From a virus: 64,000 nucleotides of DNA. Position numbers and translations under genes: made by a program. Position 1 is the first letter of the stretch, and every line of letters starts with the position of its first letter. The notes under the pieces are model-generated. The model saw only the letters and a program-made list of their open reading frames with translations. It made no database searches and had not been told where the DNA came from. Of this stretch, positions 39,215-63,168 are shown in pieces. The stretch lies in the IMG/VR virus record IMGVR_UViG_3300018080_000004, one strand, 5' to 3'.

Positions 39215-39262
39215 GAGACGCCCTGGGGGGCCCCTTCGGGGGTCCCCTGGGGGAACGCAGGC

Positions 39263-39559: not shown

Positions 39560-39563
39560 CACC

Positions 39564-40013: not shown

Positions 40014-40167
40014 GACTTTCCTTACCTGGGGGTGGGAAATCTCCAATCGGATCAGCGGGAGCGCCAATCGGAGGGAGAGGAAAGGGACTTTTATGGCGGT
40101 TTTCGAGGGGTTTCAGTGTGGCACGGCGATTGCTTTACTTTCGGGCGAGTCTTTTGAGGAAAGAAGC

Positions 40168-40590: not shown

Positions 40591-40610
40591 TAATTTTTTG
40601 GGAATTTCGC

Positions 40611-40639
40611 TTGAAAAGTGGACCGTGATACCCTATAAT
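40611..40639 (+). promoter_or_regulatory. Early promoter cassette 3
   Basis: TTGAAA-AGTGGACCGTGATACCC-TATAAT, identical to 36422. Confidence 0.88.
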
Positions 40640-47334: not shown

Positions 47335-48189
47335 ATGGGAGACAGACGAGGAAAACGAATCATCCAGCTCGAAGGGGAGCTCATGAAGCGCCGGGAGGAG
47401 GCCCTCAAGCTCAAGGAGGAGCGCGTGCGCCTCCTGTCCAGCCTCAAGGCCATGACCGTCCGGACCCAGAAGCCCACCGCTTACATGCTCGAAATCCGCC
47501 GGGCGGTGATGGGGAAGGAGATCGCCGAGGAACCCAGGGAGGACGCCGACAAGATCATGCAGGAGATCACCTTCGGCCTCTCCCATCTCCAGGCCGAGAT
47601 ACAGCGGCTCACGGCGGCCGAGAACACCACTCTCTTCGCCCACGAGCTCGCGGGAGTGGAGCGGTCGTGCCTGCGGTGCATGGGCCCGGCGGACCCCATC
47701 AAGGAGAAACCGAGAAGCCTGGAGGAAATCCACGAGCGGCAGGCGCGGCTCATCGCCCTCTGCCGAGTCCAGAAGATCGCCAAGGGTATCGTGCCCGATT
47801 GCCCGATGTTCAGGCCGCAGGCCGTCGCCAAGGAGGGAGAAGATGACGATCAAGAGCGCGAAGGATTCAACGCCGATGGAACCCGCACCGGCCGCTTCCG
47901 AGGAGACCGAGAAAACAAAGGAAACGCTCCTCGCGGTGCAGAAGGAAGTCCTGGAGAACACGGTCCGGACGGAGCCGACGTACGGGCAGCTCAAGGAGAC
48001 GGTGAAGCGCCTGGAGGAGGCCCTGGAGCGGGCGGCCCAGGCGGCAGCGAAGGACCGGGCGAAGGCGGCGACGGCGGAGGAGGAGACGGAGCGGGTGCGG
48101 TCGAGGGTGTCCAAGGAGAAGCAGAAGCTCCTGAACCGGATCGAGGGCCTGGAGGTGAGCCTGTCGAAGGAGCGCACGACGGCGAATAA
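47335..48189 (+). CDS. Hypothetical coiled-coil/Cys protein; 3' end uncertain
   Basis: SD GGAGG; coding-like to ~47840, then a low-complexity tail overlapping the next gene. Confidence 0.5.
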   Translation: MGDRRGKRIIQLEGELMKRREEALKLKEERVRLLSSLKAMTVRTQKPTAYMLEIRRAVMGKEIAEEPREDADKIMQEITFGLSHLQAEIQRLTAAENTTLFAHELAGVERSCLRCMGPADPIKEKPRSLEEIHERQARLIALCRVQKIAKGIVPDCPMFRPQAVAKEGEDDDQEREGFNADGTRTGRFRGDRENKGNAPRGAEGSPGEHGPDGADVRAAQGDGEAPGGGPGAGGPGGSEGPGEGGDGGGGDGAGAVEGVQGEAEAPEPDRGPGGEPVEGAHDGE

Positions 48190-48547
48190 GTGGCTCGCCG
48201 TCAAGGCGTCGCCTGTCGGCCCCTACCTCCAGGAGACCGGCCGTGCCACCGACAAGATACCGTCGAGCATCTCGCGGGACGGAGACTGGATCGCCCCCCT
48301 CCTCGCGGCCTACAAGCGCGGTGCGTCGGCCGGGAGCGAGGCGGCCATGGTGGCGGCCATCGAGCGGCACGCCGACCTCGACGAGAAGCGCCCGGCGCAG
48401 TGCGTCTGCCCGGCATGCCAGCTCAGGCGGCATATCGAGGAGCAGAAGGTGATCCTCGTGAACCTCAAGCAAGAGAACGACCGGCTCCTCCGCGACTTGG
48501 ACAAGGAGCGGGGGAAGAAGGTGAAGAGCAAGCGCCGGAGCCGGTAG
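47843..48547 (+). CDS. Hypothetical coiled-coil protein
   Basis: SD AGGAGG; CVCPAC motif. Confidence 0.65.
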   Translation: MTIKSAKDSTPMEPAPAASEETEKTKETLLAVQKEVLENTVRTEPTYGQLKETVKRLEEALERAAQAAAKDRAKAATAEEETERVRSRVSKEKQKLLNRIEGLEVSLSKERTTANKWLAVKASPVGPYLQETGRATDKIPSSISRDGDWIAPLLAAYKRGASAGSEAAMVAAIERHADLDEKRPAQCVCPACQLRRHIEEQKVILVNLKQENDRLLRDLDKERGKKVKSKRRSR

Positions 48548-48574: not shown

Positions 48575-49222
48575 ATGCAGACTTTCATGAGCGACGACGG
48601 CCGCATCCTCATCCACGTAAGTAGCGACTTCTCCGGAGAGGCCGAGATCATGGTGGGCGACGCCCCTCCCTTTGCGTTCGACCCGTCCATTCTCGTGGCC
48701 GTGGGCGAGCACTACCTCGATCTCGCCCTCGCCAAGGCCCTCGCGGCGGCCGAGGACATCCTCCCGACTCTGGAGGGCGACGACCGCCAGGGCACCGTCG
48801 AGGACCTCGTGGAGAACATCAAGCAGCTCGCGGCCATGCGGGCGAGCGCCAAGCCGGAGGCCGTCCTGGTGGTCCGGTGCACCGGCTGTGGGGCGGGGTA
48901 CGACGGCCCCCTCATGACCGGGTTCATCTGCGCCGAGTGTTCGAGCGTCTGGGACCCGGCAACGGGGAAGTGGAAGCACCCCAGCGGGATCACCCCCTTG
49001 AAAAAGGCGCAGCTCCTCGCCGAGCGGGCCCCGAAGGTCCCGGCCGAGATCGCCGAGCACCTGGAGAACAAGACCCTCATGTGCCCTCCCGACGCGGAGA
49101 GCGTTACGGGCCACTACGACCCGGCCGGGCCGGGCGGTGGGGAGGCGCCCGCTGGAGTGCCCATCTGCGCCGGATGCGGGAGGCCCAGGGCCGACCACAA
49201 GCCCAGGAAGGAGGGGGCGTGA
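48575..49222 (+). CDS. Hypothetical Zn-finger protein
   Basis: SD GGAGG; CTGC...CAEC, CAGC. Confidence 0.62.
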   Translation: MQTFMSDDGRILIHVSSDFSGEAEIMVGDAPPFAFDPSILVAVGEHYLDLALAKALAAAEDILPTLEGDDRQGTVEDLVENIKQLAAMRASAKPEAVLVVRCTGCGAGYDGPLMTGFICAECSSVWDPATGKWKHPSGITPLKKAQLLAERAPKVPAEIAEHLENKTLMCPPDAESVTGHYDPAGPGGGEAPAGVPICAGCGRPRADHKPRKEGA

Positions 49223-49674
49223 ACTTCATTTTCACAGCGGCGGTGCTTCGAGTGAACCGACCGAACAAGGTCGGGCGCCTCTATCCCCGCGAGATCGTCG
49301 AGACGGCGATCAAGGAGGCTGGGGACACCATCCTCCTGGTGGTAACGGAGACGGACGACTGGGGCGGCCCCATGATTTCGCTGAACAAGGCCGTGGGCGA
49401 GGTCAACCGGCTGTGGATCGGGGACGACGACATCCTCCGGGTCCAGGGGCGGCTCTTCGGGGATGTGGCGCCACTCAAGGGCCTCTCGCCCGACGACGTG
49501 GTGCGCCTCGTGGGCCGGTTCAAGCTCGTCACGGTCGGGCAGGGAGCCCTGGGCCCGGAGGATCAGGTGCTCGACGGCTACCGCATCAATGGTTTCCTCC
49601 TCGCGGAGGAGTCGAACGACGAGGCGGCCGAGAGCATCCCGGCGGTGGTGCTGCCGGATGGAGTGGGATCATGA
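49219..49674 (+). CDS. Degenerate T4 gp21-type prohead protease-like protein
   Basis: NKVGRLYPREIV, ISLNKAVGEV..L, VTVGQGAL...V..Y.I; the expected His and SSRG Ser are not present. Confidence 0.5.
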   Translation: MNFIFTAAVLRVNRPNKVGRLYPREIVETAIKEAGDTILLVVTETDDWGGPMISLNKAVGEVNRLWIGDDDILRVQGRLFGDVAPLKGLSPDDVVRLVGRFKLVTVGQGALGPEDQVLDGYRINGFLLAEESNDEAAESIPAVVLPDGVGS

Positions 49675-49847
49675 CAGTATTCGGATTCGGGGACTTCTCG
49701 ACGAAGCCGGGGAAGGGCGACGGCGACAAGAAGCCCAAGAAGATCAAGGGGAAGCTCATCGGGTGGCTTGTCAGGGTGGAGTGCTCGAAGTGCCGGGAGG
49801 AGCGAGTCCGCCGGAACCGGCGCCTCGCCAAGCCCTCCCTGAACTGA
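49671..49847 (+). CDS. Small basic protein
   Basis: ATGA overlap; CSKC. Confidence 0.5.
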   Translation: MTVFGFGDFSTKPGKGDGDKKPKKIKGKLIGWLVRVECSKCREERVRRNRRLAKPSLN

Positions 49848-49859
49848 GGAGGAGGGGCC

Positions 49860-50048
49860 ATGAGGATCATCGAAGCTGGAAGCGCGGTCTCCAGGGACCC
49901 CCAGAGGGTGGCCGAGGAGATCGCCCAGGACATCCGTCGGGCGTGCGCCCCCGGTCCGGTGCACCGGTTCGCCCTGTTCATCGACCACCTGCTCTACACG
50001 ATTCATGACGCTGTTTTCGGGCGCCCCAGGCAGCCCTTCAAGGGGTGA
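49860..50048 (+). CDS. Small hypothetical protein
   Basis: SD GGAGG. Confidence 0.5.
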   Translation: MRIIEAGSAVSRDPQRVAEEIAQDIRRACAPGPVHRFALFIDHLLYTIHDAVFGRPRQPFKG

Positions 50049-50055
50049 TCGCACG

Positions 50056-50670
50056 GTGGACAGTCCGTGGGAACACAATATGAGATCGCACCGCTCCGGG
50101 CGACTCGGTGAGGAGTTCTGCCGGGAGCATTTCGGGATCAAGGAAGATGACCGGTTCGAGATCAAGAGCTCGGCCGCCGAGCACGGGTCTTTCGTGGTCC
50201 AGGCGTGGCAGCTCCTCGAACAGCTCGGCAAGCAGTACGTGGTGGTGACCTACGACAGGGCGACCCGGAGAGTCACGAGGGGGCCGAACAAGGGGAAGAA
50301 GCGGTTCATTGAGACCATCGAGCAAGCGTATGGGAAGAAACTCAACGTCTACGTCGTGCCCGGCCACCGGATCATGGAGTACATCCTCCAGAACGAGCTC
50401 AAGGTGTATTGCACGGCCAGGGGCGGCAACGTCCTCCACTATGGGAAGTGGGGGGTGGTCTGGAGGGTGCCCTACGCGGTCCTCCCGACGGAGGTCTACG
50501 AGGAGACCGAGGCGTACGTCCTCCACGCGGACCCGATGCACCCGCCGGGGTGGGAGGGGGACGCGGTGGCTCGGACCATCCACGGAGGGCTCTTCGATGC
50601 TCCCCAAGGCGGGAATGGAAAGGCCCGGCCGCCCAAGGAGCAGGACGAAGACGAGGACGTACCCTTCTGA
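50056..50670 (+). CDS. Putative PD-(D/E)XK nuclease-like protein ending in an SSB-like acidic tail
   Basis: GRLGEE...FEIKS; C-terminus DEDEDVPF. Confidence 0.5.
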   Translation: MDSPWEHNMRSHRSGRLGEEFCREHFGIKEDDRFEIKSSAAEHGSFVVQAWQLLEQLGKQYVVVTYDRATRRVTRGPNKGKKRFIETIEQAYGKKLNVYVVPGHRIMEYILQNELKVYCTARGGNVLHYGKWGVVWRVPYAVLPTEVYEETEAYVLHADPMHPPGWEGDAVARTIHGGLFDAPQGGNGKARPPKEQDEDEDVPF

Positions 50671-50679
50671 GGGGGGACC

Positions 50680-51342
50680 ATGATCTACGTCATTTCCGAC
50701 ACCCACTTCGACCACGCCAAGATCGAGGTCTACTGCAACCGGCCGAAGGGCTGGCAAGACCTCATCATCCGGAACTGGAAGCGCATCGTGGGGCCCGGCG
50801 ACACGGTGCTCCACCTGGGGGACCTCGGCTGGAAGAACGCCGAGCGCATGGCGGCCATCGTGAAGGAGCTCCCCGGCCGTCTCATCATCTTGAAGGGGAA
50901 CCACGACCAGAGCGCCCGGTGGCTCGAACGGTGCGGGGCCACGCTCGTCCTCAATGAGCACGGGAGGGGCGTCAGCATCGACGACCCGGACTACCCGGCC
51001 GCCTTCGTGTGCGCCAAGATCGACTCGGACCCCAGGGCCCTCCTCCCCCACTTCAAGGAGTGGTTCCGGTCCGTCGTCGTCTCCCACGAGCCCCACACGA
51101 ACATCAAGTGGCCCTACCTCTACGGCCACGTCCACAATAACCCCGTGGCCTGGGACGACGCGGGCGTGCCCTTCCCCCTCAGCACGATCCCCGGCCGGAA
51201 CGTCTGCGTCGAGGTCATGAACTACATGCCGGTGCCCCTCCCTGTGATCCTCGCCGACTCGGAGTGGATCGAGAAGCACTGGGGAGCCATGGCGCGGCAT
51301 CTTTTCGGGATGGACCCCCAGCAGGCCCGTTCCAAGGAGTGA
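50680..51342 (+). CDS. Calcineurin-like metallophosphoesterase
   Basis: SDTHF, HLGD, GNHD, SHEP, GHVH. Confidence 0.9.
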   Translation: MIYVISDTHFDHAKIEVYCNRPKGWQDLIIRNWKRIVGPGDTVLHLGDLGWKNAERMAAIVKELPGRLIILKGNHDQSARWLERCGATLVLNEHGRGVSIDDPDYPAAFVCAKIDSDPRALLPHFKEWFRSVVVSHEPHTNIKWPYLYGHVHNNPVAWDDAGVPFPLSTIPGRNVCVEVMNYMPVPLPVILADSEWIEKHWGAMARHLFGMDPQQARSKE

Positions 51343-51344
51343 AC

Positions 51345-52205
51345 ATGCACAGGATCGAGATTCCCCCGCCGGAGGTCTTCGCCGACGCCGAGGCGCTGGA
51401 GGCCAAGGCGGCCGAGAGCGCCGGAGAGCTGGCGAACGCCGCCATGCACGAGGTCGTGTCCCTCCTCCGCGTGACGCAATACTACAAGGCCCTCCTGGAC
51501 CGCCTCATGCAGCCCCCGACGCCTCGGCTCCTCGCCCTGGCGGAGCGGTACGTCCAGATCGAGGAGACCGGCCAGGGCCCCCAGCCCCTCGGCGAGGACG
51601 AAATCTCGGACCGTTTCGAGGTCGTCGCCGAGGCTTACCGGTACTACAAGGGCAAGTACGACGCGGCCCGCTCCGGCCTGGGCATCTGCACCGTGGGCCA
51701 CGAGGCCCTCATGCGGAAGCCCCAGGAGACCACGGCCGAGTACCTCGCCCGGCTGGCCTACCTCATCAAGGACTTCGGAGCCCAGGTGACGGCCCAGATC
51801 GGGAAGGCCCGGTTCGGCCTCCCGGAGGACCACGAGGGCCCCGTGGCGACGGCCGAGGAGATCGACGACGAGATCATGGAGGGCCCAGGCGACCGCCCCC
51901 GCGCCGAGCCCGTCCCCGACCAGGAGGAGCCGGGCTGGCAGGACGATATGGTCAGGGAGTACGGGTGCTCCTTCCTCATGGCGGGCATCCGGTTCGAGCA
52001 GACCGTCGTCAAGGTCGGCAACGGGATCGGTGTGGAGCGCCGGGTCCAGGAAGGCGGGGACGAGGTGTACGTGGTCTTCGCCCCGGCGGCCAAGATGCGC
52101 GACGCCGACAAGCTCGCCGAGCTGTGCAACATGACGCCCCTCGGCGAGTGGAAGGAAGTCTCGCCGGACGAAGCGCCCGAAGAGGGCGGAGAGGAGGAAG
52201 CATGA
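51345..52205 (+). CDS. Hypothetical protein
   Basis: SD AAGGAG. Confidence 0.65.
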   Translation: MHRIEIPPPEVFADAEALEAKAAESAGELANAAMHEVVSLLRVTQYYKALLDRLMQPPTPRLLALAERYVQIEETGQGPQPLGEDEISDRFEVVAEAYRYYKGKYDAARSGLGICTVGHEALMRKPQETTAEYLARLAYLIKDFGAQVTAQIGKARFGLPEDHEGPVATAEEIDDEIMEGPGDRPRAEPVPDQEEPGWQDDMVREYGCSFLMAGIRFEQTVVKVGNGIGVERRVQEGGDEVYVVFAPAAKMRDADKLAELCNMTPLGEWKEVSPDEAPEEGGEEEA

Positions 52206-52951
52206 AACGGGAGGGATTCCCGGCCGAGCCCCAGCCCGTGCGGGAGGTCGAGGTCCTCCAGGTCATCAAGACCACGGGCCTGACCGGCAACGGGGACGAC
52301 GACGATCCGGTCCGCACTGTGGACCAGTTCTTCGCCATGGACGGAAAGCACCTCTTCAAGATCGACCGCTGGGACGAGGAAAAGAAGGAGCCGGAGCCGG
52401 TGTATATCCGGTGGCCCGGCCTCGACGAGGAGGGGAGGGTCCGGGCTGTCGCCGACCTCCTGGACTCCCTGTCCAGGGACCCGGCTATTGACCTCCGACA
52501 CCCCCGCTTCCGGGGCGACTTCGTACGCCGTCTCGCCCGGCTCTTTCGAGAGATGACCGAGAAGCTCTACGCCAAGCCCGAAACGGGCCCGGAGCAAGAC
52601 CCCAGCGTGGTTCTCAAAGAGGACCCGATCCACGTCCACGGGCCGAAGAGCGTGTTCGCGGCGCGGTGCGACTTGGCAAGGCGGGATGAGTCCCTGGCGA
52701 CCACCATGCACGAGTTCTGCGGGGAGATGTTCCTGGACGTGCTCAGGGCCGAGAAGGATGGCAAGGAGGGGTGGGACGACCCCCAGCAACGCGACTTCCT
52801 CATGCACGAGCTCCACGTGCACGCGGAGCAGGGCAAGTGGGTCGGTGTGGCGAACTTCGCTGCTTTCCTGTGGAACCTGGACCGCGAGTGGCAGGCCGAG
52901 CGCGAGCGCAAGGAGAAGGAGGAGGGATGCCAAGGCGAACCTTCAAGCTGA
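52202..52951 (+). CDS. Hypothetical mosaic phage protein
   Basis: SD GGAGG; C-terminal GWDDP...HAEQG..V.VANFAAFLW. Confidence 0.62.
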   Translation: MKREGFPAEPQPVREVEVLQVIKTTGLTGNGDDDDPVRTVDQFFAMDGKHLFKIDRWDEEKKEPEPVYIRWPGLDEEGRVRAVADLLDSLSRDPAIDLRHPRFRGDFVRRLARLFREMTEKLYAKPETGPEQDPSVVLKEDPIHVHGPKSVFAARCDLARRDESLATTMHEFCGEMFLDVLRAEKDGKEGWDDPQQRDFLMHELHVHAEQGKWVGVANFAAFLWNLDREWQAERERKEKEEGCQGEPSS

Positions 52952-53727
52952 ACGGGCACGAGCACGGGTGGCTCGTCCTCGGCGACGCCATCAAGGGCAT
53001 GGCGCGGATGGAGGCCGGGTCTGTGGACCTCGTGTTCGCGGACCCTCCCTTCGGCCTCGCCCAGATGGCCGGGGGCAAGATCGAGAAGGCGTACAACCGC
53101 AAGAAAGAGTACGTCCTCGACGGCTACACCGAAATCCACCCGCTCCGGTACAAGGAGTTCACCGAGGACTGGCTCCGGGCGGCGTACTACGTCCTCCGGA
53201 CCGGCGGCGGCCTCTGGGTCATGTCCGGGTGGACCCACGCCCACGTGGTCCACGAGGCCCTCCTCGCCCAGGGGTTCAAGCTCCTGAACAAGGTGGTCTG
53301 GAAGTACAACTTCGGCGTGTGGACCACGCGGAAGCTCGTGACCTCCCACTACGAGATGTTCTACGCCTGCAAGCCGCCGGACGGCCGCCGGACCTTCAAC
53401 CGGCTCCTGGGGAACGACCACGAGTACGACCGGGACGAGCGCCGGGCGGACTACCTGTGGCGGCAGGACGTGTGGGACATCAAGCGCGAGTACCAGCCCG
53501 GCCGGGTCAAGAACATCACGAAGCTCCCGAACGCCCTGGTGCGGCGGGTGATCGAGATGACCACGAACCTCGGCGACGTGATTCTGGACCCCTTCGTGGG
53601 CAACGGGACCACCTACGTCGAGGGCCTGCGCCTGGGGCGCAAGGTGATCGGGTTCGAGGTGAACAAGGGGGCGTATGTCCACGCCTCAGAAGAGGCGCGG
53701 GAGGCCCTCAAGACCATCCTTCCTTGA
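52927..53727 (+). CDS. DNA methyltransferase, N4-C/N6-A beta class
   Basis: DLVFADPPF (motif IV) precedes ILDPFVGNGTT (motif I). Confidence 0.9.
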   Translation: MPRRTFKLNGHEHGWLVLGDAIKGMARMEAGSVDLVFADPPFGLAQMAGGKIEKAYNRKKEYVLDGYTEIHPLRYKEFTEDWLRAAYYVLRTGGGLWVMSGWTHAHVVHEALLAQGFKLLNKVVWKYNFGVWTTRKLVTSHYEMFYACKPPDGRRTFNRLLGNDHEYDRDERRADYLWRQDVWDIKREYQPGRVKNITKLPNALVRRVIEMTTNLGDVILDPFVGNGTTYVEGLRLGRKVIGFEVNKGAYVHASEEAREALKTILP

Positions 53728-53737
53728 GGACACCACC

Positions 53738-54217
53738 ATGGACTGGAAACAGGACACACACAAGCATATCAGGCGCGTGCGGCGGCTTCTCAGGCTCTTC
53801 ATGGTGCTTCTCGACGCACGAGGGAGCACCCACGACCTCACGAAGCTCCAGAGCCCGGAGGCCGAGGTCTTCGAGGAGTTCACGCCGAAGCTGGCCGGGT
53901 CCACCTTCGGGAGCGACGAGTACAAGGGCTTCCTGGCGGACATGAAGCCCGCCCTGGACCACCACTACGAGTGCAATCGGCACCACCCGGAGCACTTTTT
54001 CGATGGTGTCGCGGGCATGAACCTCGTGGACCTCCTGGAGATGTTCGCCGACTGGAAGGCCGCCAGCGAGCGCCATGAGGACGGCGACATCCGGCGGAGC
54101 ATCGAAATCAACGCGGACAGGTTCGGCATCACGAATCAGCTCAAAGCGATCCTCCTGAACACCGTGGTCCTCCTGGAGGGAGAGGAGAATCTTGACGACA
54201 GCGGGGCGGGAGGGTAG
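53738..54217 (+). CDS. HD-domain protein (DUF5662-like)
   Basis: HDLTK, HHYECNRHHPEH, DLLEMFADW. Confidence 0.82.
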   Translation: MDWKQDTHKHIRRVRRLLRLFMVLLDARGSTHDLTKLQSPEAEVFEEFTPKLAGSTFGSDEYKGFLADMKPALDHHYECNRHHPEHFFDGVAGMNLVDLLEMFADWKAASERHEDGDIRRSIEINADRFGITNQLKAILLNTVVLLEGEENLDDSGAGG

Positions 54218-54309
54218 GCTCGGACTGGGAAAAGTCGGTTGCTTTTTTCTTCATTGAGCCCGCCCGCGTACTCCGTGGACGGGCTCTCATATTTATCTGT
54301 AAATTTCCG

Positions 54310-54340
54310 TTGACAAGCGGACCGTGAGACCCCATAATAT
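54310..54340 (+). promoter_or_regulatory. Conserved-spacer sigma70 promoter
   Basis: TTGACA-AGCGGACCGTGAGACCC-CATATAAT. Confidence 0.78.
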
Positions 54341-54349
54341 GAGCGTCGA

Positions 54350-54646
54350 GTGAAGGGGAAAATGATGCTGTACCACCTGAGCCCTACCGGCCGCGCCCTG
54401 ACCTGGAAGCAGTGGAAGGGGCATGGCGGCTGCGATCTTTCGGACTGGAGCGCGGGCCTCGTGTGCGGTCAGCTCGGACTGAGGCGCAGGGGCGACATCG
54501 AGACCCTCCCTCTCGGCCTCATCGAGGATGCGGCCCACTCGGCCGGGCGCGAGCTCGCCCGTTTCGCCGCCGAGCACCTGAATCGTCCGGAGTGGGCGGT
54601 TCCCTACAAGGAGGACGAAAGCCCGTGCGCTACTTCATCCGATTGA
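54350..54646 (+). CDS. Hypothetical protein (start may be ATG 54362)
   Basis: First ORF after the promoter. Confidence 0.55.
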   Translation: MKGKMMLYHLSPTGRALTWKQWKGHGGCDLSDWSAGLVCGQLGLRRRGDIETLPLGLIEDAAHSAGRELARFAAEHLNRPEWAVPYKEDESPCATSSD

Positions 54647-54921
54647 ACGAGGACCCGGAGCTCCAGGCCGAGGCCAAGCACGTCGAGAAGGTGAGCCCCA
54701 CCGAGGTCCTCGTCCACGACGTGGCGGACTTCCCCTTCTACACGGGGCCCATCAAGGTCTCGAAGTTCGAGCTCGTGGACGAGAGCGGCGAGGTCTGGGC
54801 GTTTCGGCGCCTCCCGGCCGCTGCCTGCTTCGTCCTGACCGACTCCATCCGGCTCTCTGTGAACTGGCGCTGCACGGTCGTGTCCGGCAAGGAGAGCATC
54901 GAGTTCGGAGGCCAGGGATGA
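54625..54921 (+). CDS. Hypothetical protein, weakly resembling a tail-fibre/baseplate adaptor domain
   Basis: SD AAGGAGG; VSKFELVDESGEVWAFRRL...L.VNW. Confidence 0.5.
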   Translation: MRYFIRLNEDPELQAEAKHVEKVSPTEVLVHDVADFPFYTGPIKVSKFELVDESGEVWAFRRLPAAACFVLTDSIRLSVNWRCTVVSGKESIEFGGQG

Positions 54922-55223
54922 GAAGACGAGCACCCAAGAAGCCGGGACCCAAACTGAACCGAGACTGGGTGGGCCTCCGTGTCCGGCTGCGTCGGGAGGC
55001 ATCGAACGCCTACGGGGTCCTCCCGGCCGGGACGGAGGGGGTCATCAAGCACTACTCGTCCGGACGGCCCAGGATCGAGTTCATGAGCGACGAGTGCCCG
55101 CACTGTAAAGTCCGGATCAGGATCAGCGGGATGAGCCGCTTCGACTTCGACATCTTGACCCCGAAGGAAGACTGGCCCGACACGAGAGGGAAGGGCCGCC
55201 ACTACGAGGAGAGGCGCTGGTGA
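54918..55223 (+). CDS. Hypothetical protein
   Basis: SD GGAGG; CPHC. Confidence 0.6.
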   Translation: MRRRAPKKPGPKLNRDWVGLRVRLRREASNAYGVLPAGTEGVIKHYSSGRPRIEFMSDECPHCKVRIRISGMSRFDFDILTPKEDWPDTRGKGRHYEERRW

Positions 55224-55597
55224 GCATCCGCATCGTGAACGTCCGCTTCCATGGGGCGCCGAAGGGCCCGAATGAGGTCTACGTCGGCCGGTACGTGGCG
55301 GGACGGCAGGACCTCAAGCCGTCGCCCCTGGGGAACGTGCCGGGCCGTAGCTGCACGCCCATCGAGGCCACCGAAATCTACCGGGAGTGGCTCCACGAGC
55401 GCGTGGTGAAGGGCAAGAGCTGGCCGTACAGCAAGGCGCGGGCGGAGCTCAAGCGTCTGTGCGATCTCCACGAGCAATACGGGGACCTCGTGCTCGTGTG
55501 CTGGTGTGCCCCGGAGGCTGGATGGACCTCGGCTGACAAGCCCCGCCGCTGCCACGCCCAGATCATCGCCAAGTACATCGAGGAGCGGCTGGGATGA
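55220..55597 (+). CDS. DUF4326-family protein
   Basis: VYVGR...SPLGN...YREWL...LVCWCAP...CHA. Confidence 0.82.
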   Translation: MSIRIVNVRFHGAPKGPNEVYVGRYVAGRQDLKPSPLGNVPGRSCTPIEATEIYREWLHERVVKGKSWPYSKARAELKRLCDLHEQYGDLVLVCWCAPEAGWTSADKPRRCHAQIIAKYIEERLG

Positions 55598-55842
55598 ATA
55601 CGACTTACATCCAGGTAACGCTCCAGGTGGCCGTGGAGGACCCGGCGCACTGCTCCGGCGCGTGCAATTACGCCGGGGCCGAGCTGTGCCTGCTCTTCGG
55701 GCGAGCCCGGATGCGGGACCCGCAGACGGACCTCTACTGGCGGCTTCCGGACTGCGAAAAGGGCGGCGAGCTCCTCGAAGCGTGCATGGACCTCCGGAAG
55801 GAGATCGAGGGGAGCGGCAAGAAGCGCAAGGGGAGGAAGTGA
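55594..55842 (+). CDS. Small Cys-rich protein
   Basis: C...C...C.LF...R...C. Confidence 0.6.
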   Translation: MNTTYIQVTLQVAVEDPAHCSGACNYAGAELCLLFGRARMRDPQTDLYWRLPDCEKGGELLEACMDLRKEIEGSGKKRKGRK

Positions 55843-56036
55843 TGGGTGTCATTGACACCATCATCTCGGTGGCCGCCATCCTTGGGGTGGTCGTCTTCCT
55901 CGTGTGGGTCTTCATCTGGGACATGCGGGCCAAGCGGGCCCTCAAGGAGATCGACCAGTGGGACCGGGCCCTCAAGGAGCTCTACAGGGAGGCCGAGGAG
56001 CGCAAGCGCAAGAAGGAGGAGACGGATGACGCTTGA
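55842..56036 (+). CDS. Small membrane protein
   Basis: N-terminal TM helix, charged C-terminus. Confidence 0.6.
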   Translation: MGVIDTIISVAAILGVVVFLVWVFIWDMRAKRALKEIDQWDRALKELYREAEERKRKKEETDDA

Positions 56037-56178
56037 AGCTCGTATTTTTCTGACCATTGTCGCGGTTCTCATCATTCTCGTGCTCGTCTTTGTAGTGGCG
56101 TACCCCGTTGAGGTGGACTGGCACGAGATAGACAGGGACGGCTACCCGGAAGAGGAGGAAGAGGATGGAGCCCAGTAG
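56026..56178 (+). CDS. Small membrane protein
   Basis: N-terminal TM helix, acidic C-terminus. Confidence 0.55.
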   Translation: MTLEARIFLTIVAVLIILVLVFVVAYPVEVDWHEIDRDGYPEEEEEDGAQ

Positions 56179-56611
56179 GAACGTGAAGGAGCTCCTCGCC
56201 AGGGTCGAGGAGGCCATCCAGGCCGTCACCGAGCCCTTCGCTTTCGAGGGTAGGAACACGGCCGAGGACCGCGAGATGATCCGCACCCAGGTCTTCGACA
56301 TCCTCCAAGGGATCATCCACGAGCGCGTGCCGGAGCGCCCGTGCCCAGGCGTGTGCGTCCAGGAGTCCACGGAGCCCGACCAGTTCTACCTGGAGTTCTT
56401 CTACCCCAAGACGGGGAAGCCGATGGGTGTCGAGGCTCTTTACCGGTACGTCGGACTCCTGCCGGACACCCACGAGATGGGCGTCATCGTCGAGTTCACG
56501 GCCCCCATCGAGCTGCACTGCTCGGTCTGCGGCGAGCCCCAGTTCAAGACCCCCGGCGGGATGACCTGCAAGAACGGCCACGGCGGGGCCCCCGCGAAGG
56601 AGGAAGGATGA
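56165..56611 (+). CDS. Hypothetical protein with a tail-sheath C-terminal-like segment and Zn ribbon
   Basis: LARVEEAIQAVTEPFAFEGRNTAEDREMIRTQVFDILQGI; CSVC...C..GH. Confidence 0.55.
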   Translation: MEPSRNVKELLARVEEAIQAVTEPFAFEGRNTAEDREMIRTQVFDILQGIIHERVPERPCPGVCVQESTEPDQFYLEFFYPKTGKPMGVEALYRYVGLLPDTHEMGVIVEFTAPIELHCSVCGEPQFKTPGGMTCKNGHGGAPAKEEG

Positions 56612-56976
56612 GCCTCAGCACCGCCCAGAAGGCCCTCATCATCCTGGAGGCCGCGAAGAGCCCGCTGCCCACCGGCTACATCGGGGAGCAGCTCTGGGGC
56701 GACGGTATCCGGCTGCCCCAGCACTATGCCCGCCCGGCCGGGCGCGTCCTGAACTGTCTCCGGGAGGCCGGGCTCGTCGTCCGGGTCCATCGAGGCGGCA
56801 AGGGCTTCATGGGGTGGGAGATCACCGAGGCGGGACGGCGTGCGCGGGCGGTGTCGAAGGTCGCCCAGAAGATGGGCGTCGCTATCCGCGAAGGCATCCG
56901 TGAGGGGATCAGGAATACGCGGCCCATGAGCCAGAAGAAGTCCAGGGTGACGTACCTGGGCGAGGAGGAAGGATGA
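56608..56976 (+). CDS. Winged-helix DNA-binding protein
   Basis: AGRVLNCLREAGLV...WEITEAGR. Confidence 0.65.
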   Translation: MSLSTAQKALIILEAAKSPLPTGYIGEQLWGDGIRLPQHYARPAGRVLNCLREAGLVVRVHRGGKGFMGWEITEAGRRARAVSKVAQKMGVAIREGIREGIRNTRPMSQKKSRVTYLGEEEG

Positions 56977-58361
56977 AATCGGACCTCAAGATCGAGATCG
57001 ACGGGAAGGCCGTGTCCCTCGAAGACTACCTTTTCCCGATCCCCTACCCCTCCACGGACTACGAGGAGCAGGCCCGCTTCCAGGAGAAGGTCCGGAACTT
57101 CCTGCGCCCGCGTCCTCGAAAGGGGAGGGACGGACCGCCTCCGGACCCCACGCCGATCTACATGCTCGCACCCGACGCGGGCTTCCCGCTCCACAGGGGG
57201 ACAGCCTTCGTGGAGGCTGGGCATGTCACGTCTTTCGAGTGCCCGGCCCTCCCCTCGCCGCTCTTCTGCTTGAACCGAACGGTGGAGATGTGGCCGAAGC
57301 CCATGCGGGTGAAGCTCTACCTCAAGAGAGACCGTGACAGGGAGGTCGTCTGGGGGTGCGTCGCCGAGGGAGCCAAGTTCGTCGTGAACTTCGTGGACGA
57401 GGCGTGGATCAGGACCGTCTACGACGGGCCCATCCTCGTCCTCGTGCCCGTTCCAGCGAAGCCCTCGTGTGTCACGTGTCCACCGGGGAAGAACGCCGTG
57501 TGCAACGAAGAGGGGCAGTGCTTGGCGACCGGAGAGGAGATGCCGGAGTCGTCGTTCGGCCGAGAGGCCACAGCGAAGGAAGGAGAAGCCATGACCTTCA
57601 AGAAGGGGGAGAAGATGGCCGACAGGTACGGCCCGGTGAAGTTCGAGGTGCCGAACCGGCGCTACGTGCGCTCGTTCATGCTCTTCTATCTGGAGCCCGA
57701 CGGGGACGGCCGCTCGCGCCTCAAGACCGCTGCCATCATGCGGCCGGTGGACCTCATCGACTTCCAGGCCAAGCTCTCGAACGGCCAGATCAAGATGCCG
57801 GAGGGGATGAGCCTCACGGTCCAGCTTTTCGGCCAGAGCGCCGACCTCGTGGCGGACGACAAGGAGCCCCCGGTCCGTTTCACGCCCGGCCAGTTCGAGG
57901 GGGGCCCCATCGAGATGCAGGGGGACCCGGAGAACGTCAAGAGCTTCCTCAAGGGCGCGGCCGAGGCGGCCGGGCTCCTGGACGAGGCCCCCATGCTCCA
58001 GTGCACGAAACACGGCACCAAGTTCGCCCCCAGGGAGGAGGGTGTCACCATCGGGGAGTGCCCCTGGTGTCTGGTGGAGCAGCGGGACGCCCTCGCCGCC
58101 GACTACAAGAGTCTCAAGGCCGAACTTGCCACCATCTTCGGGCCCGTCCAACCCCACCACGGCATGACATGGAACGCGAGTATGCTGTGCCGGATAGGGG
58201 AGGTTCTGGCCGAGCAGGAGAGGCCCTTTCAGATCAGGTTCGACGGCCCTCCCGGCCCGGAGGCCGGGCGGTTTATCGAGGTCGAGGACCGGGACGGGAA
58301 GAGCATCTCCAAGGGGCGCTGGGAGCAGGACGGGGAGTATTGGCTCCTCATCATCGAGTAG
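56973..58361 (+). CDS. Mosaic hypothetical protein (possible internal start at 57591)
   Basis: Internal SD AAGGAG-ATG; C-terminal FDGPPGPEAGRFIEVED domain. Confidence 0.6.
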   Translation: MKSDLKIEIDGKAVSLEDYLFPIPYPSTDYEEQARFQEKVRNFLRPRPRKGRDGPPPDPTPIYMLAPDAGFPLHRGTAFVEAGHVTSFECPALPSPLFCLNRTVEMWPKPMRVKLYLKRDRDREVVWGCVAEGAKFVVNFVDEAWIRTVYDGPILVLVPVPAKPSCVTCPPGKNAVCNEEGQCLATGEEMPESSFGREATAKEGEAMTFKKGEKMADRYGPVKFEVPNRRYVRSFMLFYLEPDGDGRSRLKTAAIMRPVDLIDFQAKLSNGQIKMPEGMSLTVQLFGQSADLVADDKEPPVRFTPGQFEGGPIEMQGDPENVKSFLKGAAEAAGLLDEAPMLQCTKHGTKFAPREEGVTIGECPWCLVEQRDALAADYKSLKAELATIFGPVQPHHGMTWNASMLCRIGEVLAEQERPFQIRFDGPPGPEAGRFIEVEDRDGKSISKGRWEQDGEYWLLIIE

Positions 58362-58369
58362 GGGGGCGC

Positions 58370-58573
58370 GTGCCCGAAGCGTTCGAGATCAGGATGCTCC
58401 CGGAGTTCTTGCAGGCCGTGGAGCACGAGTTCTGGGCCCGGTATCCGGACCTCTACGAGAGGTACTGCGTCTTCCTGGGGACCCAGATTCAGCGCGTGCA
58501 GCGCGGGGAGATCAAGGAGCGGGACTACATCGAGGAGTGGAAAGACAAGCACCCTGGAAAGGAGGAGCCATGA
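58370..58573 (+). CDS. Small hypothetical protein
   Basis: GTG start; ATGA overlap with the next gene. Confidence 0.5.
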   Translation: MPEAFEIRMLPEFLQAVEHEFWARYPDLYERYCVFLGTQIQRVQRGEIKERDYIEEWKDKHPGKEEP

Positions 58574-59907
58574 GCATACCGCCCTATCTGGAAGGCATCC
58601 TGGAGCGCCGCAGGGAGCGCCTCCTGGCCCTCCTGAACGCCCTGGACCACCACCCGATCTTCGGGGAGCTGTACTCGAAGTACGGCCAGAACATCCTCAT
58701 GCACTGGGGCCCGGAGAAGGGCGAGCTGGACGAGGTTCTGGCCCTCGAAGAGGAGTTCCCGGAACTCGGCCTCAAGGACGTGGGTGGGGGTCTCGCTGTC
58801 ACCTTCGCCTCGCTCCTCGCCACCATCACGGACGTGCTCTGCGGGGAGCGCCTCGCTTTCAAGCAGGAGCCCATCGACGGCGGCGATCCGAGGGAGGGGA
58901 AGACCGTGGGCTTCCAGTGGACCACGCCGCGCAAGGTGCAGGCCCCAGAGGTCCGGGTCATCGAGAAGATGGAGCTGACCTCCGTGAGCCTCATTCCGGA
59001 GGAGGCCGTGGTGGACCCCCACTGCAAGGTGGCCGTTCCGGACGGCCCAGCCTCGTTCGTGCTCGCCAGGGCTGGGGAGCCTGACCACTACGGCCGGAAG
59101 TTCACCCGCGAGGCGCTGGAGGCGGAGGCCGAGCGGCTGAACAAGACAAAGGGATGCGACCTGACCCACGGTCCCCTCGCGGAGCCTGTGGCGAAGCTCG
59201 TCGAGGCCCGCATGGAGGGCGACGACCTCCTGGTCTTTTTCGACCCACTGCCGGGCCTGTTCAAGCTCCGAGAGGGGTGGGTGGCGAGCGCATGGACAGA
59301 CAAGGGGGCCATCTCGGCCGGACACGGCACCGAGGAGAACTGTGGCACGTTCAAGTGCATGGACGCCCCCGACGCCGAGCCGATCAAGGCCCCGGAGGGC
59401 CCGATCACCCTCATGGGCCAGCGGACGCTCGTGCGCCCTGCCGACAGGGGTAACGTGTTCATCTGCGACGCCTGCATCCCCGGCGGCGAGGGAATCACCC
59501 TGGAGGGCTACGTCGGGGAGGGGAGGAGCTGCGCCTGCTTCATCTGCGGGGGCATGTTCACCCGGAGCGAGGTGAACGAGGTGTCCCGCGAGAGGGGCCA
59601 GGAGATCGCCAAGAGGGCGGGACCTCTTGGAGGAGGCCCCATCTGCCCCGTCGGCGACGAGGGCGTCGAGGGGCCGACTGGGATGCTCGAAGGGGACGAG
59701 CGGGCTGAGCTGCCGGGCCATCCGGACGACTGCCGGTGCCTGCTCTGCATGGCCGAGCGCGGGAAGCGCGTGCGCGTGGCCTGCGTCGAGTGCGAAACCG
59801 TGTTCAACCCGAACGTGGACCCGAACGCGGCAGCCGTGCCCGGCGGCCCTCTCTGCCCGGACTGCTACAAGAAGAAGCGCGGGGAGGACGACGATGGGGA
59901 AGCGTAG
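58570..59907 (+). CDS. Mosaic protein with prohead-protease-like segments and several CxxC motifs
   Basis: IEKMELTSVSLIP; PDHYGRKFTREALE; CDAC, CFIC, CRCLLC, CVEC, CPDC. Confidence 0.6.
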   Translation: MSIPPYLEGILERRRERLLALLNALDHHPIFGELYSKYGQNILMHWGPEKGELDEVLALEEEFPELGLKDVGGGLAVTFASLLATITDVLCGERLAFKQEPIDGGDPREGKTVGFQWTTPRKVQAPEVRVIEKMELTSVSLIPEEAVVDPHCKVAVPDGPASFVLARAGEPDHYGRKFTREALEAEAERLNKTKGCDLTHGPLAEPVAKLVEARMEGDDLLVFFDPLPGLFKLREGWVASAWTDKGAISAGHGTEENCGTFKCMDAPDAEPIKAPEGPITLMGQRTLVRPADRGNVFICDACIPGGEGITLEGYVGEGRSCACFICGGMFTRSEVNEVSRERGQEIAKRAGPLGGGPICPVGDEGVEGPTGMLEGDERAELPGHPDDCRCLLCMAERGKRVRVACVECETVFNPNVDPNAAAVPGGPLCPDCYKKKRGEDDDGEA

Positions 59908-60622
59908 GCCGAGCTGGGCCGCTCCCCCGCCGGGCGAGGTCCAGGACAAGTCCAGGGGACCCCGGAAGGAGCCGGGCCCACGGTTCACGAACACGTCGCC
60001 GTGGCTCCTCCAGCATCCGAACCTGCCCAAGCCCATGCACGGGCTGAATCCGAGGACCCTCCTGGGGCAGGAGTGGTGGGACGTGAAGCGCCGGGCCGCG
60101 TATGCCGAGAGGGACTTCCACTGTTGGGCTTGCGGGGTCCACAAGCGCGACGCCCAGGTCTACCAGTGGCTCGAAGGACACGAGGAGTACAGGATCGACT
60201 ACACGGCCGGGCGCATGGAGTTCGTCCGCGTCGTGGCCCTGTGCCATTTTTGCCACAGCTTCATCCACAGCGGGCGCCTCATGGCCCTCCATGAGAAGGG
60301 GGAGATCACTTCTGGCCGGTTCAAGAAGGTGATCGTCCACGGCCTGGACGTTCTCCACGAGGCGGGGGCGCTCCCCTGGGCCGAGACGGTCCGGGTGGCC
60401 CTCCTCGTGGCCGACGCCCGAGGATGGCGCGGCTACAAGGGGTGGCCGATCAAGCGGCTGGCGAAGCTGCACGTGGCGGCCAAGAAGGTCGATCAGACGC
60501 CCGCGAAGATCGCCGCCTGGGGCAAGTGGCGGCTGGTGATCGAGGGGAGCGATTTCAAGCCCCTCCACAAGGACATGGACGCCTGGAGGAGGGCCTACGA
60601 CGTGTTTCCTGGAGACGAGTGA
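59894..60622 (+). CDS. HNH-family endonuclease-like protein
   Basis: CWACG...LEGHE...ALCHFCHSFIH. Confidence 0.75.
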   Translation: MGKRRPSWAAPPPGEVQDKSRGPRKEPGPRFTNTSPWLLQHPNLPKPMHGLNPRTLLGQEWWDVKRRAAYAERDFHCWACGVHKRDAQVYQWLEGHEEYRIDYTAGRMEFVRVVALCHFCHSFIHSGRLMALHEKGEITSGRFKKVIVHGLDVLHEAGALPWAETVRVALLVADARGWRGYKGWPIKRLAKLHVAAKKVDQTPAKIAAWGKWRLVIEGSDFKPLHKDMDAWRRAYDVFPGDE

Positions 60623-60722
60623 TGGCAGCAAGCGTTCACACGGTCAAGAAGTGCCGGAAGTCGCCGGGCACCTGCGGCCTGGACGGCCCCACGGCCGCCG
60701 AGATGCTTCTGGGGGGACAGGA

Positions 60723-60962
60723 ATGAGCATCCTGGACCGGATCAGGAAGACGGAGCGCATGATCGACTTCCTGCGCCGGAAGTACCCCCAGTACACGTGG
60801 CGCTACAACGCCTACCTCCACCGGTGGGTCTGCGGGGCCGGGTACGTGATGAACGTGGCCGCCTTCGCGCCCAGGTACGACGGGGACGACGACACCTTCA
60901 TCACGGAGACGTGGTTCTACTTCTACGCCAAGGGCAAGCGCCCGGAAAGGGTCTGGAGATGA
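60723..60962 (+). CDS. Small hypothetical protein
   Basis: ATGA overlaps on both sides. Confidence 0.6.
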   Translation: MSILDRIRKTERMIDFLRRKYPQYTWRYNAYLHRWVCGAGYVMNVAAFAPRYDGDDDTFITETWFYFYAKGKRPERVWR

Positions 60963-61726
60963 GAACCTGCGTGAATTGCGGGGACGACTACGAGGACGCC
61001 GACGCCAGGGAGGGCTCGAACGCCTGCCCGGACTGCCAGAGGGCCATGGACCTCCTCAAGCCGGAGCTGGAGCGCCTCCAGAAGGTGGAGGCGGCCTACG
61101 AGGACGTGAAGCGGGAGCTCCGGGACACGCGGGACCGCGAGCGGCAGCTCCGGAGGTGCATCGACTTCCTTGCCGAGTACGGGCACTTCGGTCTCGGCAG
61201 CTACAATGGCCCGAACGGCCTGGAGAGCTCCACGGAGTCCCGCTGGTTCTACCGGACGGAGGCGATCTTCAAGGCTCCGGGCCCGTTCAAGCCCGTGTGC
61301 CTCCAGGAGGCGCTTGCGCGGTTCCTCGCGGCGGAAAGACGCTCGGAGGCCGAGGCCGCCGACGAACTGCCGACCTTTCGCCAGACCCCTCCGCTCGGTG
61401 TCGAGTACGAGCTGTGGGTCAAGTCGTTCGGTGCTTTCCTGCACAAGCTCCAGTCCATGGTCTGGGGCCGCACCTGCGACAGGCGACCGGACACCCTGCT
61501 CGCGTCGCCGAGCGTCTGGCCGATCATCGAGGCCCAGGACGGCTTCGAGGCGGCCGATCTCCCGCGCCCCGTCGAGGGATGGACGGAGCGGGCCCACATG
61601 GGAATCCTGCGCCGTCACGGCCTCTCCGTCGTCATCGACCCGCACTACACGGCGGGGCACGGCGAGGTCCGCTGCTCCGAGGGCGCTGGAGTCGAGTACA
61701 TCGAGAAGTTCCGAATCGAGGACTGA
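60959..61726 (+). CDS. Zn-ribbon/coiled-coil protein with C-terminal major-capsid-like segment
   Basis: CVNC...CPDC; ELWVKSFGAFLHKLQSMVWGRT...LLASPSVWPIIE...GF...MGIL...VVIDPHY. Confidence 0.6.
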   Translation: MRTCVNCGDDYEDADAREGSNACPDCQRAMDLLKPELERLQKVEAAYEDVKRELRDTRDRERQLRRCIDFLAEYGHFGLGSYNGPNGLESSTESRWFYRTEAIFKAPGPFKPVCLQEALARFLAAERRSEAEAADELPTFRQTPPLGVEYELWVKSFGAFLHKLQSMVWGRTCDRRPDTLLASPSVWPIIEAQDGFEAADLPRPVEGWTERAHMGILRRHGLSVVIDPHYTAGHGEVRCSEGAGVEYIEKFRIED

Positions 61727-61728
61727 CC

Positions 61729-62157
61729 ATGCCTTTCATTCTGGTCTACGAAGAGGACGGGCACTGCGAGCGCGAGCTGCTGACGCTGGGGGCGCTCCGG
61801 TCCGGGCTGCCGGTCCGGCACAGGACGGCCCGGCTCGCGGAGTTCCTGCTGACCGAGGGGACGCCCACGGAGGACGAGCGGTTCCTCATGGACCGGTTCC
61901 TCGACCTCGCCCAGGGGGCGGGCAGCGGCCCGAACTGGGCCCTCTCCGAGGCCCTCCGGCGGCTCGAACACCACGTCGCCGCCCGCGTCCAGGACGCCAA
62001 GGAGCGGGGAGCCCGGCCGAGCCTCCTGGCGGCCATCGAGGCCCAGGTGGCGGCCATGCACGAGGACGACGACTCCCACGTGATGAAGACCCTGTGCGCG
62101 GGCGTCTCGGCGCGGGTGGGCTACGAGTGGAAGCCCTACAAGGAGGACGCCGACTGA
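61729..62157 (+). CDS. Hypothetical protein
   Basis: SD GAGGA; last gene before the non-coding region. Confidence 0.6.
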   Translation: MPFILVYEEDGHCERELLTLGALRSGLPVRHRTARLAEFLLTEGTPTEDERFLMDRFLDLAQGAGSGPNWALSEALRRLEHHVAARVQDAKERGARPSLLAAIEAQVAAMHEDDDSHVMKTLCAGVSARVGYEWKPYKEDAD

Positions 62158-62188: not shown

Positions 62189-62288
62189 TGCTATACTGAG
62201 GTCTCACGCGCCGGGCTCTCGGTGAGCGCCGGTGGCAACGGGGCCCACGCCTGAACATGGGGGGCAGGTCGTGGCCCCGTTCTTTTTC
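62189..62288 (+). ncRNA. Candidate small RNA: extended -10 promoter, hairpin and terminator
   Basis: TGCTATACT; AACGGGGCCCACG...CGTGGCCCCGTT-CTTTTT. Confidence 0.4.
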
Positions 62289-62765: not shown

Positions 62766-63168
62766 CCCCTGGGACCGCGTTTACGGGGGGCACCCTCGCG
62801 GTATCGTCCACTGTCGGTAGCGACAGTCAGCGGGCCCTGGGACCGGGCGCGGGGCGGCTGGCGCACTGCGGGTTCGGCGGGGTGCCCCACTGTCGGTAGC
62901 GACAGTCGTGGGATTTCCCTTGACGACCCCTGGGACCGGGGGCAGAATGAGGACGAGCTGCGGGGCGCGGCCACCGGCCACTGTGCCCCCCGGAGCGACA
63001 ACCGAGCGGCCCAGGACTACTGGGACCGACGGCGACTGACTGGAACACCGTTCGAGAGGTTGCGCCATGAACCGATGCCGTGCATGCGGTCTTCCCACCC
63101 GTTCACCTTCCCTCGCCTGTGCCCAGTGCGGCACGCTCCACGAGGGCGCCCCTCCCCTGGGACCGGGG
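62766..63168 (+). repeat. Dispersed CCCTGGGACCG repeats interleaved with the 18-bp palindromes
   Basis: Copies near 62767, 62835, 62928, 63020 (partial) and 63155; palindromes at 62810 and 62889. Confidence 0.65.

Follow-up and report, generated by a model that had tools for sequence, protein, structure and literature searches.

The closest described case to the one reported here comes from the phiKZ-like giant phages, where gp117 of SPN3US is a "cryptic", diverged and truncated paralog of gp245, the prohead protease (Ali et al. 2017, PMC5694885). In T4, the prohead protease gp21 has a dedicated inhibitor, Inh, and the 5' part of the virion gene alt is partially duplicated in alt.-1 and alt.-2, which adjoin their parent gene and are regarded as remnants (T4 record annotation). 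The T4 vertex protein gp24 is the classical paralog of the capsid protein gp23: two genes of one phage share a major-capsid origin, and gp24 is a full HK97-fold shell protein. Sheath initiators of the gp25/TssE type are small proteins that share the C-terminal "handshake" fold of the tail sheath. Here we examine a stretch of 64,000 nucleotides of viral DNA (IMG/VR record IMGVR_UViG_3300018080_000004; this whole stretch is called the window), in which positions 47.8-62.2 kb are an accessory region, or block, of an uncultured ~131-kb T4-like-headed myovirus from sediment. A first-pass annotation, made by eye, had matched accessory open reading frames (ORFs) at six places to pieces of T4-like virion proteins and taken them together as possible immune decoys. 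Two of the six matches are firm, namely a catalytically dead mini-protease and a capsid fragment; two more, in proteins of 445 and 148 amino acids (aa), are probable, and the other two are rejected. At least two, and probably four, proteins of the block hold pieces exapted from morphogenetic proteins of the phage itself, and we tentatively propose that these pieces act as binding mimics. The features concerned are:

49219-49674, plus strand: 151-aa mini-homolog of the prohead protease T4 gp21 (Peptidase_S77), catalytically dead and spanning approximately gp21 residues 45-185
60959-61354, plus strand: N-terminal part (aa 1-132) of a 255-aa fusion protein, with a Zn ribbon, a coiled coil and a conserved YNGP...APGPFKP region
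61355-61726, plus strand: C-terminal part (aa 133-255) of the same 255-aa protein, a Gp23-family major capsid fragment
58570-59907, plus strand: 445-aa multidomain protein, with an N-domain (aa 1-120), a prohead-protease-like middle and C-terminal Cys-rich Zn fingers
58945-59307, plus strand: the prohead-protease-like domain of the 445-aa protein (aa ~126-246), from ESM Atlas structure and features
56165-56611, plus strand: 148-aa protein, with an N-domain that includes a sheath-like segment and a C-terminal ~30-aa Zn-ribbon mini-module
56180-56380, plus strand: segment aa 6-72 of the 148-aa protein, resembling the T4-type tail-sheath C-terminal domain (two helices and the next strand)

The ORF at 49219-49674 had been described as following the gp21 pattern without its catalytic motifs, and this description holds. 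By itself the ORF matches nothing in Pfam or PHROGs, and BLASTP against T4 gp21 gives a high-scoring segment pair of 18 residues (E=4e-4), located at the conserved N..RLYP..I.E.A.K motif. A profile of four sequences ranked T4 gp21 (PDB 5JBL) first among 177,635 PDB sequences, at E=0.088. An exhaustive profile search of 1.84 billion representatives returned 21 family proteins of 120-171 aa, and a family profile of 24 sequences matched T4 gp21 (PDB 5JBL) at E=1.6e-9 over 111 of 135 positions. Pfam Peptidase_S77 (PF03420) is matched by 15 of these 24 members, with a best value of 1.9e-15, and hundreds of phages have an annotated prohead protease that family members match with 31-39% identity. As a stand-in for the phage's own protease, capsid and sheath we used a related 116-kb IMG/VR genome (G001), reached via a conserved neighbour gene and containing one S77 protease and one Gp23 capsid gene; the family profile matched its true protease at E=9.6e-18. 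By sequence profile, the ORF is a true remote homolog of the T4 gp21-type prohead proteases.

The homology covers the core of gp21, including the N..GR.YP..I.E.A motif and a G.G turn, and leaves out the catalytic residues. When the ORF is aligned with T4 gp21 and the G001 protease, the columns of T4 His85, Ser140 and Asp168 hold D, V and L, and none of the three columns is conserved across the 24 family members. The mini-protease has 151 aa as compared to 212 aa in gp21, with ~45 N-terminal residues and the C-terminal tail of gp21 missing. Unlike gp21, it does not adjoin scaffold or capsid genes, and its lineage has a separate, intact protease: the mini-protease gene lies among accessory genes, whereas in G001 the true protease is directly upstream of the capsid gene. 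The likeness to SPN3US gp117 is that of a second, shortened and presumably inactive protease of the T4 gp21 type, encoded away from the active copy and conserved among relatives. However, gp117 still aligns the catalytic Ser and Asp, while the mini-protease family has neither these nor the His, is smaller (120-171 aa) and occurs in a 131-kb T4-like-headed lineage. We found no study of the family, its sole precedent being the one-line mention of the SPN3US "cryptic protease" (PMC5694885). An AlphaFold prediction of the 151-aa ORF from an alignment of four sequences gave an unusable model, with a predicted local distance difference test score (pLDDT) of 47. A "hypothetical protein" of Stenotrophomonas phage RAS14 was considered as a further mini-paralog and rejected, as it is a real 213-aa protease adjoining the portal. 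In G001 the frame that directly precedes the capsid gene is open over 767 aa and has the true S77 protease domain as its N-terminal part (G001:24212-26512, L011), an arrangement that suggests a protease-scaffold fusion or a polyprotein.

The first-pass annotation had named neutral evolution as pseudogene debris as the outcome that would count against it. For the mini-protease, the ratio of nonsynonymous to synonymous substitution rates (dN/dS) is 0.28-0.30, equal to that of the conserved 510-aa neighbour, which indicates purifying selection and that this gene is not debris. Its surroundings are conserved as well. In relatives with 57-71% identity its companions are genes for a coiled-coil and a Cys-rich protein, for a protein of ~500 aa and for a ~57-aa peptide. 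The corresponding neighbours in the window are:

47843-48547, plus strand: 234-aa coiled-coil protein, upstream neighbour
48575-49222, plus strand: 215-aa Cys-rich protein, upstream neighbour
49671-49847, plus strand: downstream partner gene for a 58-aa basic FGFG/Cys peptide, which overlaps the mini-protease stop and is conserved in the relatives L003 and L007

Orthologs of both upstream neighbours occur in the same order in L003, L005, L006, L007 and L008; in PHROGs these two proteins have a weak, coiled-coil-type match and no other. A ~57-aa ORF with the FGFG motif also lies downstream of a distant family member (P0005), and the mini-proteases of other lineages are complete, stand-alone small genes. 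The mini-protease family counts at least 21 clusters (50% identity) in metagenomes; it is old, widespread and under selection, and its synteny is conserved.

The capsid fragment is the second firm case, and the placing of a gp23 C-terminal region at 61400-61650 is strongly confirmed. By BLASTP, the last 121 residues of the 255-aa ORF align with residues 341-436 of the G001 Gp23 capsid protein, a 496-aa open frame positive for PF07068, at 39% identity (E=5e-22) and with 2 gaps; the corresponding tblastn and phmmer values are 3.8e-18 and 3.7e-19. When all block ORFs were compared with the whole G001 genome by tblastn and phmmer, this fragment was the only match. In the ESM Atlas, a model of residues 135-255 aligned to a Gp23 cluster with a template modelling (TM) score of 0.82 over 115 aa. 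T4 gp23 itself gave noise alone against the 255-aa ORF, the PDB sequence search with this ORF did not retrieve the claimed virion protein, and the fragment had no match in 50,697 phage records, the last of which implies that it was derived from this lineage's capsid gene. One match came back from a metagenome scan with the fragment; this exact 8-mer lay in an unrelated frame and was considered spurious.

Of an HK97-type fold with N-arm, E-loop and P- and A-domains, the 255-aa protein aligns ~100 C-terminal residues, and the preceding 132 are unrelated. Therein it departs from T4 gp24: what has been copied sits behind an unrelated Zn-ribbon/coiled-coil protein. The likeness to T4 alt.-1 and alt.-2 is that partial virion-gene copies are kept in small ORFs, although the capsid fragment is remote from the capsid gene and translationally fused. 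We found no literature precedent for such a capsid-fragment fusion. Residues 1-132 are 40% identical to a stand-alone 137-aa gene of a relative (L003:19448-19861) that stops where the capsid fragment begins; the fragment is thus a lineage-specific C-terminal addition. Its frame is intact, with coding periodicity (GC content at codon positions 1/2/3 of 0.69/0.46/0.88), and three strain variants whose DNA is 99.2% identical show one silent change and no replacements within it. Elsewhere in the 255-aa gene, strains L025, L026 and L027 show 5 silent and 4 replacement changes clustered in codons 2-14 (60962-61000), the first Zn-ribbon knuckle, and this cluster is a recombination patch or a hypervariable site. 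The other strain differences in the gene are a replacement at codon 70 and, in one strain, the silent change at codon 189 within the fragment.

In the 445-aa protein, where two protease-like pieces had been proposed, one domain is probable from predicted structure and a second piece was not found. Residues 125-290, searched by structure in the ESM Atlas, matched a Peptidase_S77 cluster with TM scores of 0.47/0.54 and a Peptidase_S78_2 cluster with a TM score of 0.58; searched by features, they matched small viral proteins and S77 (score 0.91). This domain is also the best non-self match of the mini-protease hidden Markov model (HMM) in the window, but its E value of 0.25 is not significant, nor is the p=0.07 of a shuffle test. 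It keeps the motifs "THGP" and "ISAGHG", which resemble HP...ISSRGHG of the true lineage protease. The C-terminal third of the protein is Cys-rich, and the protein has no counterpart in the relative L003. Its N-terminal 120 residues (58570-58929) share 63% identity with a stretch of a 311-aa metagenomic protein (P0026) that is labelled ribosomal L7/L12 owing to a different domain.

The 148-aa protein had been assigned the C-terminal motif of the tail sheath at 56165-56320, for which we obtained modest support. A sheath C-domain HMM, built from eight diverse T4-type sheath C-domains, placed the 148-aa ORF at the top of the window's 777 six-frame ORFs, with E=0.0045 over 46 residues and a next best value of 1.5. 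The alignment of the segment with the sheath by hhalign gave P=4.8e-4 over 65 columns, as compared to P=0.21 for a negative control, at a probability of 32%. The best BLASTP segment pairs fell on the same C-domain helix, with E=0.081 for T4 gp18 and E=0.047 for the G001 sheath. Shuffle-calibrated Smith-Waterman alignment against the two sheaths reached p~0.02 at the same site, a level equal to that of a positive control, the true mini-protease against the G001 protease. Other searches added little. The ORF does not match PF17482, the sheath C-domain of Pfam; the PDB sequence search with it retrieved no sheath; and a profile of its family had no match in G001. An AlphaFold model of the protein (pLDDT 66.6) gave nothing at E<=0.001 in Foldseek, TM<=0.41 in the ESM Atlas, and Z<=4.9 in VIA, where ~9 sheath/gp25-like C-domains in the top 50 share a fold and count as one observation. 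On balance we lean towards a real relatedness of the segment to the sheath C-domain. Like the gp25/TssE proteins (~130-150 aa), this is a small protein with a probable resemblance to the sheath C-domain, and gp25-like and sheath C-domains recur among its weak structural matches; unlike them, its match is short and weak, its gene lies outside the baseplate cluster and it has a Zn ribbon.

Two further observations concern this protein. Its Zn-ribbon mini-module (C..CGEP...P.G..CKNGHGGAPAKE; window 56516-56611) is about 80% identical in P0029 and P0030, and the proteins sharing it have unrelated N-terminal domains; the ~30-residue unit looks like a mobile protein module. At L003:17226-17927, the 148-aa protein's N-domain continues instead into a stretch with homology to residues 339-384 of a 462-aa protein of the window (56973-58361), an arrangement that points to gene fusion or fission between neighbours.

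Profile and structure searches, which had been proposed as the check on the by-eye matches, thus yielded significant matches to virion proteins. Since the pieces cannot catalyse or assemble, binding by mimicry would be their natural mechanism, and we suggest that they occupy the partners of their parent proteins. The dead protease would probably bind the true prohead protease, or the substrates of that enzyme, but not cleave anything. So bound, it would restrain protease activity outside the prohead, as T4 Inh does by another route, and would incidentally leave host CBASS less of a protease signal to sense. Prohead-protease activity has been reported to trigger CBASS by cleaving a loop of the CD-NTase (bioRxiv 10.64898/2026.03.04.709575); the published assay uses EcCdnG, which T4 gp21 activates. 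By analogy, a dead protease paralog could serve gp21-type regulation, CBASS evasion, or both. The capsid- and sheath-derived pieces may cap or escort their parents likewise.

Several points weigh against a role as binding mimics. The distant mini-protease genes that were inspected lie among small ORFs and not in head modules, a setting that fits an accessory role over one in assembly. What backs the 445-aa domain is predicted structure, at TM scores near 0.5, and the sheath-like segment is short, with an hhalign probability of just 32%. The relative's ortholog lacks the capsid fragment, and the available strain variants (99.2% identical) are too alike for a selection test; the fragment could be inert. 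The comparisons with protease, capsid and sheath were made with a relative that is ~55% identical and not with the phage's own genes. Virion-protein pieces among accessory genes are unusual, and they make the idea of phage "mimic" proteins testable. Even as assembly regulators or leftovers, they would remain a documented case of the recycling of structural-gene pieces into accessory proteins.

The remaining two matches proposed by eye, to a tail-fibre/baseplate adaptor and to a portal motif at 5078-5143, did not stand up. They concern the following ORFs:

54625-54921, plus strand: 98-aa orphan ORF claimed as a tail-fibre/baseplate adaptor, with coding-type composition and no counterpart in L003
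4583-5386, plus strand: 267-aa conserved gene, with a 33-residue Portal_T4 match at chance level

The 98-aa ORF has no match in Pfam, PHROGs or PDB sequences, and no similarity to the phage's own 10-kb baseplate/tail region or to G001. In the 267-aa protein, the portal motif is probably due to chance: Pfam Portal_T4 (PF07230) matches 33 residues below the cut-off (E=0.013-0.015), comparison with the window's own portal shows no similarity (p=0.55), and the G001 ortholog, at 31% identity, is without the motif. PDB sequence searches with both ORFs failed to retrieve the claimed virion proteins. Residues 88-116 of the 267-aa protein (4844-4930) resemble the first strand and helix of ubiquitin over 29 residues and may form a beta-grasp domain; the E value of about 0.05 refers to single ubiquitin chains and is inflated for polyubiquitin. 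With two of the six pieces unsupported and the others differing in age and conservation, the notion of a deliberate repertoire is doubtful. These differences point to independent exaptations rather than to one coordinated or co-inherited system.

The genetic setting of the pieces bears on the alternatives. The block at ~47.8-62.2 kb comprises ~28 mostly small, tightly packed genes with strong GGAGG ribosome-binding sites, and it also encodes an orphan DNA methylase, a metallophosphatase and an HNH endonuclease. It lies directly upstream of the giant head-polyprotein genes on the ~131-kb circle. The first-pass annotation had placed it far from the structural module; it is indeed outside the structural modules, but it adjoins them on the upstream side, and the large terminase and portal genes are within the window. 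Relevant features of the block and its end are:

54310-54338, plus strand: candidate sigma-70-type promoter, TTGACA-17-CATAAT, with 11/12 consensus matches, upstream of a sub-block at 54362-62157
59894-60622, plus strand: HNH endonuclease (phrog_5200, E=5.7e-23; L003 ortholog with 55% identity), between the 445-aa and 255-aa genes
62261-62278, plus strand: terminator-like GC hairpin and T-run, just past the last block gene
63067 (start), plus strand: gene for a 2678-aa giant protein, immediately after the accessory block

The candidate promoter occupies the only sizeable gap in the block, and together with the terminator-like site it flanks a sub-block that holds three of the four virion-protein pieces. 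Two promoter-like sites of this type were found as compared to 0.7 expected; terminator-like sites showed no overall enrichment. Expression of the sub-block by the host polymerase, of an early type, would be compatible with these consensus matches, which are the sole basis for it. Where the window has a 62-aa ORF, the relative L003 carries a gene of the PAPS-reductase family (L003:10627-11589), and the window's metallophosphatase is missing from L003; such differences indicate turnover of accessory genes within an otherwise syntenic block. By megablast and tblastn, the block had no match in the 50,697 phage records. Two single-protein scans of IMG/VR gave no match, PHROGs gave none for the claimed ORFs or for ten further block ORFs, and an all-against-all BLASTP comparison within the window detected no paralogy.

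One alternative to binding mimicry is that the mini-protease is the sole functional gene, the capsid, sheath-like and 445-aa protease-like parts being in-frame leftovers of recombination or duplication. We consider this unlikely. The capsid fragment is a lineage-specific appendage on a protein whose version in the relative is complete without it, an HNH endonuclease gene lies two genes upstream, and neither the 445-aa nor the 98-aa ORF has a counterpart in L003, all of which would suit such an origin; by an estimate from base composition, a 121-codon open frame in 65% GC DNA is ~5% likely to arise without selection, and the alt duplicates offer a T4 parallel. Yet the fragment keeps its coding periodicity (GC3 0.88 vs GC2 0.46) and just 2 gaps at 39% identity, and the presence of three to four morphogenetic derivatives within 12.5 kb exceeds what would be expected of casual debris. 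The identity of the fragment protein in the three strain variants points the same way, although it carries little weight given so little divergence.

Immune decoys or sponges, as the pieces were originally interpreted, would be made before the real virion proteins and would bind host sensors of the protease, capsid or sheath (the CD-NTase activation loop of CBASS, Avs, CapRel, Lit and similar systems) without activating them. The reality of the virion-protein pieces, their place among fast-turnover accessory genes, which include those for the orphan methylase, the metallophosphatase and the HNH endonuclease, and the near-consensus sigma-70 promoter ahead of the sub-block all speak for this function. 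So do the findings that Avs proteins bind core folds of capsid and tail proteins (bioRxiv 10.64898/2026.01.04.697583) and that CBASS senses prohead-protease activity (bioRxiv 10.64898/2026.03.04.709575). However, because the sensors read conserved core folds, a fragment that retains the fold could trigger them just as readily as titrate them. As for the mini-proteases, their family is old, the genes in synteny with it do not look like defence genes, and we found no virion-fragment decoy in the literature. Decoys of this kind appear improbable to us.

Quite unlikely, in our judgement, is a related form of counter-defence in which the dead S77 mini-protease family binds protease-sensing baits, such as the CD-NTase activation loop of CBASS, or the prohead protease itself, and so hides the activity, with the capsid and sheath fusions as analogous masks for capsid- and tail-sensing receptors. 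Bacterial immunity senses capsid, portal, terminase and tail proteins and, as very recently found, prohead-protease activity too. How phages hide such unavoidable late signals is largely open, and a dead protease together with a grafted capsid fragment are concrete candidates.

Two further functions are very unlikely. As weapons against co-infecting or resident phages, the pieces would be dominant-negative subunits that poison assembly of the capsid, protease or sheath in related competitors but leave untouched the proteins of the phage itself, which have diverged; satellites redirect helper capsid assembly via capsid-binding proteins, and a capsid fragment diverged to 39% identity from the lineage capsid could spare self-assembly, but a poison subunit would not need nearly as much divergence from true proteases as the mini-protease family shows. 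As capsid-targeting tags, the protease and capsid domains would dock Zn-finger cargo in the prohead core for packaging and injection, in the manner of the T4 internal proteins, a function in keeping with the position of the block directly upstream of the giant head-polyprotein genes and with gp21 as a prohead core component (T4 annotation), but the stand-alone 151-aa mini-protease has no cargo domain, and the polyprotein linker ESLGE is found in no ORF of the block, which speaks against head-cargo processing.

This linker comes from the 2678-aa protein (window 63067-64000 and L001:16095-21389), in which the form (G/N)ESLGE(G/A) recurs in 3 copies over the 1,765 residues available and is consistent with the L-x-E protease-site rule. 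The same protein has Pfam matches to Zeta_toxin, AAA_33 and DUF5661.

The window as a whole has a GC content of 65%, with all credible genes on the plus strand, and the ORF boundaries of the first-pass annotation were reproduced by independent gene calls on a 127-kb public contig. This contig, Logan SRR6963352_105312 (127,007 bp), wraps around the window, as judged from the coordinates of two loci on it, and implies a circular or terminally redundant genome of ~131.2 kb. The longest contig reported for these proteins, 131,314 bp, agrees with a circle of ~131.2 kb. Window positions 36450-40615 (4,166 bp) are missing from SRR6963352_105312, which has an assembly break at that point. Replication genes in the window encode a DEAD helicase, DnaB, a family-A polymerase and a RecA-like protein, and genes for ParB and a PEP-utilising enzyme are also present. 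Tail and baseplate genes lie directly upstream of the window start, and two head genes are inside it:

23203-25218, plus strand: large terminase (TerL)
25215-28202, plus strand: T4-type portal with an intein (Pfam Portal_T4, LAGLIDADG_3, Intein_splicing)

The intein of the portal gene contains a LAGLIDADG homing-endonuclease domain.

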